From a virus (Duplodnaviria > Caudoviricetes), in the IMG/VR virus record IMGVR_UViG_3300014205_000173: 64,000 nt of DNA, one strand, 5' to 3'. Positions 17,697-26,975 of this stretch are shown piece by piece. Position 1 is the stretch's first letter. Each line of letters opens with the position of its first letter. The translations under genes and the position numbers were made by a program. Below the pieces are notes generated by a model. That model saw only the letters and a program-made list of their open reading frames with translations, was not told the origin of the DNA and ran no database searches.

Positions 17697-18251
17697 TTAG
17701 TTTACCTCTAAACAACCATGTGTATAATAAATTCTATTATTATTTTTATCATGTTCATATTTATACCAATTACCATTAGAATATTCTTCTTTAATTAAAT
17801 TGTTATTTGAATCATATTCGTATTTTATCCAAGAACCATCATGACCTTCATATTTAATTCTATTGTTATTTTTGTCGTATTCATATCTTTCCCAAAAGCC
17901 ACTAGAAGTTTCATATTTAATATAATTGCCTTTATCATCAAAATATTTCTTAAAATATTTCTTACTATTATATTTTTCTACAATTAAATTAGATAAATTA
18001 ACTTCTTCCAAAATCTTAATTTTATTTGTAACAGACTTATCCTCTCTACTATCAATATCCCCTAAAGCTTCTACCTTAAATATTTTAAGATTTTTATTTG
18101 GAGAATAATAGTTAAACACATCAATTAAATCTTGACAGAAATGAAACCCATTTTTACATATTTCCAATTCACCATCTAAAGTATAGGTTTCTCCAACTTT
18201 ATAGAGTTGGTTCAAACAATATCCATTATAAGTTGCCTTATAGCCAATCAT
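17697..18251 (-). CDS. MIGYKAT/GFHFC-head protein with YD-like repeats, copy 2
   Basis: same head, about 4 repeats. Confidence 0.8.
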   Translation of the reverse strand: MIGYKATYNGYCLNQLYKVGETYTLDGELEICKNGFHFCQDLIDVFNYYSPNKNLKIFKVEALGDIDSREDKSVTNKIKILEEVNLSNLIVEKYNSKKYFKKYFDDKGNYIKYETSSGFWERYEYDKNNNRIKYEGHDGSWIKYEYDSNNNLIKEEYSNGNWYKYEHDKNNNRIYYTHGCLEVN

Positions 18252-22393: not shown

Positions 22394-22538
22394 AGGTAAG
22401 AAAAGTGAGATTCGAACTCACACAAATAGGTCTTCCCTGTTTCGAGAAACAAGCAATCACGTTAATTGCCTGTTTTTATCTCTCTCGTCCTTTTTATTAT
22501 AAGGCAAACGGCTATACCAATAACCGAATATTCTTACC
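22394..22538 (-). ncRNA. oversized tRNA-like RNA (Sec-like scaffold, no defined anticodon)
   Basis: GGTAAGAA/TTCTTACC closing stem, CGGTTAT-TGGT-ATAGCCG D arm, GTGAG-TTCGAAT-CTCAC T arm. Confidence 0.7.
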
Positions 22539-22731: not shown

Positions 22732-22754
22732 ACATTAAACAGAGCACCTGATTA

Positions 22755-23171
22755 CTTACTACTACGATTTTCATCGCCAACTTTTAACCTTGGATGAATC
22801 ATCATCTGTATTAAAATGTTGTTTGTAGTCTGGACCATGCCATAACCATGAGTCCTTGCTTGAAACCCATTCCATCCTTAGTAGAAGTTGGTATTTCAAT
22901 AGGATTTCTTTTAGGTCCCTACCGTCTGGCCTCTACACATTCCATATTTCCTAATTCCGAATGGGAATTCAGCCCATTATCTTCTCTTTTGGAGGGAGAC
23001 GCTCTAACTTAAGCTACTTCACAGAAATATGTTAGCTCGGCGTTGTCTCAATGCTAGCTAGTTCATTAGGGAGTTCACCGCAAATATAGAATTTTTTACC
23101 AGAAAATTTATATTTGTTTGATTTGATAGGTTTTTCAATCATAGTTTCCTATGAAAGCTGCTATTCAGTTT
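22755..23171 (-). mobile_element. group I self-splicing intron, 417 nt, no homing-endonuclease ORF
   Basis: P1 exon CTGT/IGS GCAG with U-G at splice site; P4 CGGTG/CGCCG; J6/7-P7 GTAGAGGCCA with GGCATGGTCC; P9 CGAT-GAAA-ATCG; terminal G; P10 CTGAATA/TAATCAG. Confidence 0.85.
22953..23023 (-). other. tRNA-Trp(CCA)-like cloverleaf nested in intron P6 region
   Basis: TA-GCTT-AAGTTA-GAGC-G-TCTCC-CTCCAAA-AGAGA-AGATA-ATGGG-CTGAATT-CCCAT; acceptor stem degenerate. Confidence 0.6.
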
Positions 23172-23237
23172 ACAGTCAGGTGCTCTGCAAATTATTAATG
23201 CAAGAGCAAAAAATCTTATTAGTTTTTCAAAGAACAA

Positions 23238-23357
23238 TTTGGTTTGGCAAATTCTATTGTGCTGGATAGTTAGTTTCGTTTACTCGATATCTGACGAATA
23301 CGCAGCGACCCTTGAGACGTTATCTCTTCGAATTATACAACTATCTCTCAAACCAAA
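23238..23357 (-). ncRNA. unassigned multi-stem structured RNA candidate
   Basis: TTTGGTTTG/CAAACCAAA and GATAGTT/AACTATC nested stems enclosing GAGAT/GTCTC and TATTCG/CGAGTA hairpins; strand assumed from neighbours. Confidence 0.45.
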
Positions 23358-23367
23358 AACACTTCAG

Positions 23368-24714: not shown

Positions 24715-25215
24715 CTAATTAATTATACTATTATATTTTACACAATAACCATTAGAATTTTCTGTTTTAATTAAATTATTATTTGAATCATATTCAAGCT
24801 TTTCCCAATAACCACCAGCACCTTCTTCTTTAATTAAATTATTATTGGAATCATATTCAAACTCTACAAAATAACCACTACTACATTCTTGTTTAATTAA
24901 ATTACCTTTATCGTCAAAATGTTTTTTATAACCCTCTTTTTCTACAATCAAATTAGATAAATTCACTTCTTCTAAAATCTTAATCTTATCAGTTACTGAT
25001 TTATTTCCTTCTGTTTTAATTTCTCCTAAAGCTTCTACCTTAAAAACTTTAGTGTCTTTCTTTGGATAGTAATATTCAAATACATCATATAAGTCTTGAC
25101 AGAAATGAAACCCATTTTTACACATTATTAATTTACCGTCTAAATTATATGTTTGCCCAACTTCATAAAGTTGGTCTTTACATTTACCATTTTCTGTTGC
25201 CTTATAACCAATCAT
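24715..25215 (-). CDS. MIGYKAT/GFHFC-head protein with YD-like repeats, copy 3
   Basis: same head, about 3 repeats. Confidence 0.8.
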   Translation of the reverse strand: MIGYKATENGKCKDQLYEVGQTYNLDGKLIMCKNGFHFCQDLYDVFEYYYPKKDTKVFKVEALGEIKTEGNKSVTDKIKILEEVNLSNLIVEKEGYKKHFDDKGNLIKQECSSGYFVEFEYDSNNNLIKEEGAGGYWEKLEYDSNNNLIKTENSNGYCVKYNSIIN

Positions 25216-25220
25216 ATTAA

Positions 25221-25946
25221 TTATCCTTTACCATATTCTATGTCAATACATTCATTGTTTTCATCATATTTAAATTTTACCCAATTACCATTAGAATGAT
25301 CTCTTTTAATTAAATTATTATTTGAATCATATTCATCCTTTTCCCAATCACCATCAGAATTTTCATATTTAATTAAATTATTGTTTTCGTCATATTCAAA
25401 CTCTTTCCAATATCCATTAGAATATTGTTCTTTGATTACATCATTATTTGAATTATATTCCTTTTTTGCCCAATTACCATAAGAATATTCTTTTTTAATT
25501 AAATTGCTATTTAAATCATATTCATATTTCTCCCAAGAACCTCCAGAACATTCTGTTTTAATACAATTATTATTTTCATCATATTCAAACCTTTCCCAAG
25601 AGCCCTCAGAAGAATCTTCTCTTTTAATATAATTTCTTTTATCATCAAAATACTTTTTAATACCATATTTTTCTATAATCAAATTAGATAGTTTAACTTC
25701 TTCTAAAATCTTAATTTTATCAGTTACTGATTTATTTCCTTCAGTATCAATATTACCTAAAGCTTCTACATTAAAAACTTTGATATCTTTATTTGGATAG
25801 TAATATTCAAATACATCATATAAGTCTTGACAGAAATGAAACCCATTTTTACATATTTTCATTTTACCATCTAAAGTATATATTTCCCCAACTTCATAAA
25901 GCTGGTTTTTACATTTTCCATTTTTAGTTGCTTTATAACCAATCAT
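25221..25946 (-). CDS. MIGYKAT/GFHFC-head protein with YD-like repeats, copy 4
   Basis: same head, about 7 repeats. Confidence 0.8.
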   Translation of the reverse strand: MIGYKATKNGKCKNQLYEVGEIYTLDGKMKICKNGFHFCQDLYDVFEYYYPNKDIKVFNVEALGNIDTEGNKSVTDKIKILEEVKLSNLIIEKYGIKKYFDDKRNYIKREDSSEGSWERFEYDENNNCIKTECSGGSWEKYEYDLNSNLIKKEYSYGNWAKKEYNSNNDVIKEQYSNGYWKEFEYDENNNLIKYENSDGDWEKDEYDSNNNLIKRDHSNGNWVKFKYDENNECIDIEYGKG

Positions 25947-25968
25947 ATTTATTTTCCTTTTTACCCAA

Positions 25969-26499
25969 TCAACATAAGGATTCTGTTTTAATTAAATTAT
26001 TGTTTGAATCATATTCATATTTTTCCCAATAACCCTCAGAATCTTCATATTTAATTAAATTATTGTTTTCGTCATATTCCCATTTTTCCCAAGAATCACC
26101 AGAATATTCCGCTTTAATTAAATTATTATTTTCATCATACTCAAACTTTTCCCAAAAACCATCAGAATATTCTGTTTTAATATAATTATCTTTGTCATCA
26201 AAATACTTTTTAATACCGTATTTTTCTACAATCAAATTGCTTAAACTAACTTCTTCTAAAATCATAATCTTATCAGTAACTGATTTATTTTCTTCTGTTT
26301 CAATATTACCTAAAGCTTCTATTTTAAAAACTTTAGTGTCTTTATTTGGATAGTAATATTCAAAAACATCAATTAAATCTTTACAAAAGTGAAAACCTTT
26401 TTCACACATTTTCATTTTGCCATCCAAAGTATACGTTTGCCCAACTTCATAAAGTTGGTCTTTACATTTACCATTTTCTGTTGCTTTATAACCAATCAT
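25969..26499 (-). CDS. MIGYKAT/GFHFC-head protein with YD-like repeats, copy 5
   Basis: same head, about 4 repeats. Confidence 0.8.
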   Translation of the reverse strand: MIGYKATENGKCKDQLYEVGQTYTLDGKMKMCEKGFHFCKDLIDVFEYYYPNKDTKVFKIEALGNIETEENKSVTDKIMILEEVSLSNLIVEKYGIKKYFDDKDNYIKTEYSDGFWEKFEYDENNNLIKAEYSGDSWEKWEYDENNNLIKYEDSEGYWEKYEYDSNNNLIKTESLC

Positions 26500-26975
26500 A
26501 TTGATAGTCCTTTACCATTTATTAATTTAATAGGATTGCTATTTTCGTCATATTCACATTTTTCCCAATAACCCTTGGAATCCTCACGTTTAATTCGATC
26601 ACCATTTTCATTATATTCATATTTTACCCAATAACCATAAGAATATTCTTCTTTAATTAAGTTGCAATTATTATCAAAATATTTTTTATAACCATTTTTT
26701 TCTACAACCATATTACTTAAATTAAGTTCTTCTAAAATCTTAATCTTATCTGTTACTGATTTGCCATATACGGTTTCAGTATTTCCTAAAGCCTCTACTT
26801 TAAAAACTTTTATATTTTTATTTTCTGGATAATAAAAAAATACAGTATATAAATCTTCACAGAAATGAAATCCTCTTTTACATATTTCCATTTCACCATC
26901 TAAAGTATATGTTTGGCCAACTTCATAAAGTTGGTTTATACATTTCCCATTATAAGTTGCTTTATAACCAATCAT
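26496..26975 (-). CDS. MIGYKAT/GFHFC-head protein with YD-like repeats, copy 6
   Basis: same head, about 3 repeats. Confidence 0.8.
   Translation of the reverse strand: MIGYKATYNGKCINQLYEVGQTYTLDGEMEICKRGFHFCEDLYTVFFYYPENKNIKVFKVEALGNTETVYGKSVTDKIKILEELNLSNMVVEKNGYKKYFDNNCNLIKEEYSYGYWVKYEYNENGDRIKREDSKGYWEKCEYDENSNPIKLINGKGLSI

Follow-up and report, generated by a model that had tools for sequence, protein, structure and literature searches.

Group I introns are a familiar feature of tRNA genes in bacteria and phages, and in the textbook account they persist since precise splicing restores an essential tRNA. The locus described here lies on the 287,662-bp contig of a jumbo phage (IMG/VR record IMGVR_UViG_3300014205_000173); its ribozyme core is apparently intact, yet splicing would restore nothing but a hairpin. 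In the window, by which we mean the whole stretch of 64,000 nucleotides that was analysed, the element lies on the minus strand, as do all genes in this part. It consists of a 5′ exon of 16 nt (CAGAGCACCUGACUGU, 23187-23172), a 417-nt group I intron (23171-22755) and a 3′ exon of 15 nt (UAAUCAGGUGCUCUG, 22754-22740). Exon sequences, coordinates and splice sites, all read from the sequence, agree with those of the original prediction made for this DNA. The element is known from this one metagenomic contig.

The exon hairpin and its surroundings

The 5′ arm of the exon stem (CAGAGCACCUGA, 23176-23187, minus) is identical to real tRNA-Asn genes and corresponds to tRNA-Asn positions ∼20-31, that is, the D-stem 3′ strand GAGC, A26 and the anticodon-stem strand CCUGA. 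It is followed by CUGU (23172-23175, minus), which provides anticodon-loop positions 32-35 and also the 5′ strand of P1, with U-1 at 23172. The 3′ exon contributes UAA (loop positions 36-38), UCAGG (3′ strand of the anticodon stem) and then UGCUCUG, a non-tRNA-like terminal 7 nt that is the exact complement of CAGAGCA. As predicted, the ligated exons form a perfect 12-bp stem (12/12 pairs) with an Asn (GUU) anticodon loop, which the intron splits between positions 35 and 36 (CUGU↓UAA; the arrow marks the splice site). Exactly two copies of the 12-nt arm CAGAGCACCTGA, one per strand, are present in the 64 kb, against a chance expectation of 0.03, and the outer seven Watson-Crick pairs beyond the anticodon stem have a chance probability of ∼6e-5. 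A 458-nt stretch folded better than all 100 shuffles (z = -4.5), and its minimum-energy structure contains both the 12-bp stem and the CUGU/GCAG pairing. Using ARAGORN with intron search on the genomic and the in-silico spliced sequence, at relaxed thresholds too, we detected no tRNA across the junction. Although tRNA-hosted introns are marked by a complete tRNA around them, neither the spliced nor the unspliced form has an acceptor, D or T arm, which confirms that the exon is a hairpin only.

This hairpin lies in an ORF-free stretch of ∼1.1 kb (23367-22273), where G+C is near 40% versus ∼27% in the flanking coding DNA and where tRNA-Asn, tRNA-His and tRNA-Pro are encoded. The intact intron-less tRNA-Asn(GUU) that had been placed 8 nt downstream of the 3′ exon was recovered there (22731-22656, minus); it has an encoded CCA and an anticodon arm, GCGGA-UUGUUAA-UCCGU, unlike the exon arm. 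Between tRNA-His and tRNA-Pro, a tRNA-like RNA of ∼140 nt (22395-22535, minus) carries a perfect T arm (GUGAGUUCGAAUCUCAC); ARAGORN called it at relaxed threshold only, as a tRNA with a 51-nt insert, and it had no Rfam match. The 180-nt leader separating the upstream ORF from the exon hairpin (23188-23367, minus) contains an extended -10-like sequence (TGTATAAT, ∼23343-23336). The leader also has a small hairpin, GCUCU-U-GCA...UGC-AGAGC, as a competitor to the 12-bp stem's 5′ arm.

Neither the intron nor its immediate surroundings contain a homing endonuclease ORF, and we found no RNA-repair or anticodon-nuclease-related genes by Pfam family matches among the 27 neighbouring proteins scanned. 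Families matched by the neighbours include dUTPase, PARP-like, radical SAM, sugar enzymes and DUF7666/RHS-repeat. One phage ORF (7280-8512, minus) combines WGR and PARP catalytic domains (E 1e-20). Five small paralogous ORFs of 159-241 aa (17697-18251 and 24715-26975, minus) share an N-terminal DUF7666, to which 4/5 add a weak RHS-repeat match, and four stand in tandem just upstream of the tRNA/intron cluster.

Identification of the intron

The Rfam group I model (RF00028, Intron_gpI) gave no match at the gathering threshold or at E<=10, and tRNAs were the only Rfam matches. We attribute this to the weakness of the model, whose seed is non-bacterial, and to three large insertions in the intron. 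The Rfam group I seed indeed holds no bacterial intron, and a curated alignment of 26 bacterial tRNA/tmRNA introns is available (Williams 2020, bioRxiv 10.1101/2020.01.27.920355), with which the phage intron aligns by eye, block for block.

Relatives for a dedicated model were collected as IMG/VR loci with the core motif GTGTAGAGRCYAGACGG (120 loci), 85 of which ARAGORN placed in intron-split tRNAs. From an alignment of 26 non-redundant natural phage tRNA introns (A1) we built the covariance model R1, which includes helices P1, P2, P3, P4, P5, P8, P9.0 and P9. Whereas Rfam Intron_gpI had missed the element, R1 matched it with 55.4 bits (E 6e-13) at 22753-23017 (minus), its sole match in the 64 kb. 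The 3′ half aligned cleanly through J6/7, R, P3′, P8, J8/7, P7′, P9.0 and P9a with GAAA, and the end of the alignment, ...GUAGUAAG↓UA, sets omega-G at 22755. As the large insertions misplaced the 5′ half of R1, a second model, R2, was built from the 5′ half alone; its best match in the window (23179-23093, 20.8 bits, E 0.017) spans exon, P1, P2 (GAAA), P3 and J3/4. A profile HMM of A1 (nhmmer) yielded three more colinear blocks, namely P4-P5-Q (CGGUGAAC...CAACGCCGAGCUAAC), R-P3′-P8 and J8/7-P7′-P9-omegaG. The R1 match and the fully paired helices P1 to P9a bear out the complete group I core of the original prediction, and judging from these alignments the intron is almost certainly a genuine bacterial tRNA-type (IC3) group I intron.

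Other identities were considered for the element and set aside. Among other large RNA classes, the candidates GOLLD, ROOL, RNase P RNA and tmRNA gave no Rfam or ARAGORN matches, and the group I alignment accounts for the entire element. A twin or tandem ribozyme was likewise rejected, as the second 'R-like' motif, GGUCCAGACUAC, is P7 3′ plus P9.0 of the same intron.

Architecture of the ribozyme

All helices from P1 to P9a are fully canonical where the consensus predicts pairing (helix table). The internal guide sequence (23158-23163, minus; helix table) consists of UA, which pairs with the UA of the 3′ exon as P10 (UA/UA, 2/2 pairs), and then GCAG, the 3′ strand of P1. P1 (CUGU/GCAG) has 4/4 pairs, with the wobble U23172.G23161 at the 5′ splice site. 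P2 (CAUAG-GAAA-CUAUG, 23140-23153, minus), identified as 5 bp in the sequence, by R2 and by seed comparison, ends in a GAAA tetraloop as in Azoarcus-type introns. The P3 5′ strand CCUAUC with J3/4 AAAU (23121-23130, minus) matches the invariant C-AAA-U of the seeds, and P3 forms 6/6 pairs with GGUAGG at 22923-22918. Between J3/4 and P4 stands an AU-rich hairpin of ∼36 nt (23081-23116, minus; 12/14 pairs), an insertion absent from all 52 seed introns compared (26 A1 + 26 Williams). The nhmmer block and the helix table locate P4 (CGGUG/CGCCG), P5 and the Q element CAACGCCGAGC at 23038-23080 (minus). P5 reads CUC-bulge CCU-AAUG...CAUU-GAG, with 3/3 + 4/4 pairs; P4 is canonical at 5/5 pairs but retains only five of the usual seven.

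P6 (CAUAUUUC/GGAAAUAUG, 22943-23031, minus; 8/8 pairs) encloses a tRNA-like insertion of ∼72 nt, and the R element, GUGUAGAG-GCCA-GAC, with the P3 3′ strand GGUAGG (22918-22938, minus) keeps all A1 invariant positions. P7 forms 5/5 pairs between GGCCA and UGGUC, the latter following J8/7 (AUGGCA) at 22833-22843 (minus; R1, helix table). P8 (GACC/GGUU, 4/4 pairs), together with an insertion of ∼66 nt in L8, was placed by R1 at 22844-22917 (minus) and carries a CCUAAA/CAUGG tetraloop-receptor-like motif. The remainder (22755-22829, minus; R1) comprises P9.0 (ACUAC/GUAGU, 5/5 pairs), a P9 extension, P9a (CGAU-GAAA-AUCG, 4/4 pairs) and AAG with omega-G, G22755, following the consensus ...GUAGU-AAG. 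GAAA tetraloops are present in both L2 and L9.

Compensatory changes relative to the consensus were seen in three helices: P7 (GGCCA/UGGUC versus GACUA/UAGUC, U-A to C-G), P9.0 (ACUAC/GUAGU versus ACCAC/GUGGU, C-G to U-A) and P3. The P7 variant also occurs in bona fide tRNA introns (L006, L033, L121 and L129 in our collection). At the core positions that are invariant in the 26 seeds, the phage intron departs once, by A to U in J8/7 (AAGG to AUGG), and this AUGG variant is natural in the Williams set, including Pam37.Asn.4Ug.

The insertion in L6 (22952-23023, minus) resembles a tRNA in that a D arm, an anticodon arm reading CCA (Trp-like) and a T-like arm can be recognised, and at 22961-23016 it reaches 29.7 bits with the Rfam tRNA model, just above gathering. 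An acceptor stem, the D-loop GG and a canonical T loop are missing, and the T arm has a rival in an alternative hairpin, AAUUCC/GGAAUU.

Because of its three insertions, in L6 (∼72 nt), in L8 (∼66 nt) and as the J3/4-P4 hairpin (∼36 nt), the intron is about twice the usual length. Judged by this anatomy, the ribozyme core could be impaired by the J3/4-P4 hairpin and the shortened P4, and this combination is the chief structural ground for doubting full activity. The shortness of P1 (4 bp) and P10 (2 bp) also speaks against it.

Origin of the exon

One genome per prokaryotic species was scanned with GAGC-N-CCTGACTGTTAATCAGG, which represents the ligated exon minus the outer 7 pairs, and this returned at least 120 loci. 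The 22-nt exon core GAGC-A-CCUGACUGUUAAUCAGG is identical at 22/22 positions to tRNA-Asn genes in at least 120 species; the matches listed are mostly from Bacteroidales, with others from Clostridia, Lactobacillaceae and elsewhere. All of the matches listed (129/129) are ordinary tRNA-Asn genes in which the sequence makes up the D-stem 3′ strand, position 26 and the anticodon arm, with A at position 26 in 127/129 of them, as in the phage exon. The matching genes have ...GGUUA before the core and GGGUCGU... after it, where the phage has UGCUCUG. Since its 22-nt core is identical to real tRNA-Asn genes, the phage exon descends from such a gene: it is a tRNA-Asn relic in which the 3′ side was remodelled to pair with the tRNA-derived 5′ side, and this remodelling into a complement is confined to the outer 7 nt of the 3′ arm. 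A GCUC 18 nt upstream of GAGC might conceivably be what is left of the D-stem 5′ strand, with a swollen D loop in between. CUGU↓UAA, the insertion site, belongs to the known Asn.4Ug class, which has been catalogued together with Tyr.4Ug, Asp.4Ug and Lys.4Ug (Williams 2020, 10.1101/2020.01.27.920355).

Three other accounts of the palindrome were rejected. Derivation of the 3′ arm from a variable loop by point mutation finds no footing in the 3/7 identity to real tRNAs, which is uninformative because any exact complement would yield the same. A MITE-like element with terminal inverted repeats disagrees with the single copy and the tRNA-derived arms, and a role of the stem as an intrinsic terminator or RNase III site is a distant prospect given the weak U-tract and a 12-bp stem that is too short.

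Relatives of the locus

Searches for relatives of the whole locus returned none. The phage GenBank collection matched the neighbouring tRNA-Asn and nothing else of the locus; IMG/VR, searched with neighbouring proteins, exon patterns and core patterns, contained no relative; and subfamily-specific core patterns in IMG/VR and metagenome contigs gave only unrelated tRNA-Leu/Met introns or chance coding matches. A search of 5.8 billion proteins yielded no homologue of the upstream 210-aa ORF. On the downstream side, at a distance of 0.8 kb, an R2K ATP-grasp gene has its nearest relatives at 77% and 58% identity, neither of them with synteny to the locus.

The 58% relative comes from a 207-kb contig (L134; ENA ERZ27283032), which on the basis of this protein belongs to the same phage lineage. 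At 953-1629 of L134, a 437-nt IC3 intron interrupts, at CUCAU↓AA, a full tRNA-Met(CAU), which ARAGORN mislabels Arg(acg), and an intron-less tRNA-Met follows 87 nt after it. The sister intron and the window intron share an unusual P5 (CUC, bulge CCU, helix, GAG), the Q element CAACGCCGAGC and large peripheral insertions. In contrast to the window intron, the sister is hosted by a full-length tRNA, lacks the J3/4-P4 insertion and has a different neighbourhood. The tRNA-Met layout of L134 indicates that the lineage keeps tandem pairs of intron-bearing and intron-less tRNAs, and the window shows this layout for Asn too, except that its intron-bearing copy has eroded.

Another 36 IC3 introns in viral contigs were orphans, with no tRNA assigned to them by ARAGORN; most of them lie within protein genes. 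An exon hairpin of more than 6 bp was found in 0/36, and the hairpin-exon arrangement is therefore an uncommon class. In IMG/VR viral contigs, IC3 introns also repeatedly interrupt one conserved non-tRNA sequence, ...gatttTAACaCGGT↓AAAGGCaCTtGTaCAaGGTGA... (L004, L016, L029, L048, L049, L076, L085, L090, L105, L109 and L120), presumably one repeatedly hit protein-coding gene.

A model for the cassette and its alternatives

Together, these data suggest a model where the phage element is probably a tRNA-Asn(GUU) relic reduced to a self-splicing cassette that is still splice-competent. Its ancestor would have been an intron-containing tRNA-Asn(GUU) gene with an IC3 ribozyme between anticodon-loop positions 35 and 36. 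With Asn codons decoded by the intact tRNA-Asn 8 nt downstream, the intron-bearing copy would have become redundant and thus free to erode. Acceptor stem, T arm and D loop/5′ D stem would have been lost and the D-stem 3′ strand, A26 and anticodon arm left behind, while an exact complement on the 3′ side would have turned the 5-bp anticodon stem into a 12-bp helix. As P1 is merely 4 bp, this intron class needs an exon helix, and the 12-bp helix would hold both splice sites together as the anticodon stem does in a whole pre-tRNA, which may account for the stem extension. Inferred from homology, guanosine would then attack after U23172 (P1 CUGU/GCAG, U.G wobble), omega-G 22755 would dock, P10 (UA/UA) would align the 3′ exon and the exons would be ligated. 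The predicted junction is ...CCUGACUGU/UAAUCAGG..., i.e. CUGU/UAAUCAGG, and the products would be a 31-nt hairpin, CAGAGCACCUGA-CUGUUAA-UCAGGUGCUCUG (-20.4 kcal/mol), inside the tRNA-operon leader and a free 417-nt intron. The original prediction of a 'rebuilt minimal splicing substrate' fits this anatomy, but the exon has the marks of a tRNA-Asn relic and not of a de novo construct.

The seven extra pairs, at ∼6e-5 by chance, call for either selection for paired exons, in which case splicing or the closed stem would matter, or one templated mutation. The templated route would fit a dead relic, in which a redundant tRNA-Asn copy is decaying, the ribozyme is inactive and nothing has a function, and in which the palindrome arose not by selection but by strand switching or quasipalindrome correction during deletion of the tRNA 3′ half. 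We consider this unlikely. Several features agree with it: the intact tRNA-Asn lies 8 nt downstream, the tandem intron-bearing and intron-less tRNA-Met of L134 is the presumed ancestral state, the J3/4-P4 member of the three large insertions is unknown in other introns of the family, the intron has no homing endonuclease ORF in or beside it, and a jumbo phage is able to carry ballast. However, all core motifs, tetraloops and receptors match the consensus fully or nearly so, and with an intact core and fully paired helices that carry compensatory changes, long neutral decay is not expected. Moreover, without a templated event the seven Watson-Crick pairs would be left to chance, and template switching over a 417-nt spacer is possible but uncommon. 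If the element does not splice, it would be a dated snapshot of intron decay following tRNA gene duplication.

Selection might instead have extended the stem for the sake of a product, either a decoy hairpin or a trans-acting excised ribozyme, which we regard as improbable. The decoy would be aimed at enzymes recognising the U33-G34-U35 loop, for instance anticodon nucleases or the queuosine-inserting tRNA-guanine transglycosylase. In favour of this reading, the perfect 12-bp stem is not a random feature. Compatible with it, without supporting it, are the identity of hairpin arm and loop to bacterial tRNA-Asn, from which the phage tRNA-Asn differs (U32), and the complementarity of the guide GCAG + UA to CUGU↓UA of bacterial tRNA-Asn. 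Against it, the 27 neighbouring proteins scanned included nothing related to RNA repair or anticodon nucleases, and the cassette stands alone, lacking conserved relatives, with no comparable exon hairpin in any of the 36 orphan IC3 introns. An RNA weapon or decoy kept by selection, with a hairpin that soaks up a host enzyme or a ribozyme that, its guide matching host tRNA-Asn, reverse-splices into that tRNA, is a long shot; the phage's own tRNA-Asn, given its distinct arm and U32, would then be spared. It is scarcely credible that the element is an artefact of assembly or chimera formation, or a rearrangement that happened once in the population sequenced: although the contig is a metagenomic singleton, the 12-bp repeat sits exactly 4 nt and 3 nt from the splice sites of a colinear intron, which is atypical of assembler error, and the flanks run on normally into the tRNA cluster.

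Overall, we favour the splice-competent tRNA-Asn relic, and the cassette is plausibly a snapshot of intron survival after host-gene loss. What appears to be new here is a group I intron with a tRNA-derived palindromic mini-exon; its family and insertion site were already known. If splicing occurs, the cassette would show a route for a tRNA intron to outlive its host gene, or to turn, within a phage tRNA operon, into a free-standing ribozyme or a generator of RNA hairpins. It would also parallel, in nature, what has been found in the laboratory, namely that exon pairing beside the splice sites is all that these introns need from the tRNA.

Comparison with known systems

The closest known introns are those of the Asn.4Ug class, which share insertion after loop nucleotide 4, U-1/omega-G, a CUGU-pairing guide and an IC3-type core (Williams 2020). 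Whereas these introns split complete tRNA genes, the phage copy keeps the anticodon arm and D-stem 3′ strand, with a 12-bp stem, and through its three insertions is about twice as long. The IC3 introns of Azoarcus tRNA-Ile and Anabaena tRNA-Leu share the core blocks, GAAA in L2 and L9, the P8 receptor and a very short P1, and they also depend on exon-exon pairing beside the splice sites. As cited in PMC3895272, Zaug 1993 showed that IC3 tRNA introns require exon pairing in the anticodon stem, and according to the discussion there of Zaug et al. 1993, constructs retaining the anticodon stem alone splice well; the 12-bp helix of the phage provides just this pairing with the remainder of the tRNA gone. 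The minimal-exon or 'anticodon stem design' forms of the Azoarcus and Anabaena introns are laboratory constructs, whereas the phage form is natural and known from sequence alone. Group I ribozymes with non-coding or arbitrary exons also exist outside conserved genes, as in the c-di-GMP-II riboswitch-ribozyme of Clostridioides difficile, which controls a downstream ORF. IStrons are a further case and carry a transposase (PMC4227781). Unlike the phage cassette, neither of these two systems has tRNA-derived palindromic exons.
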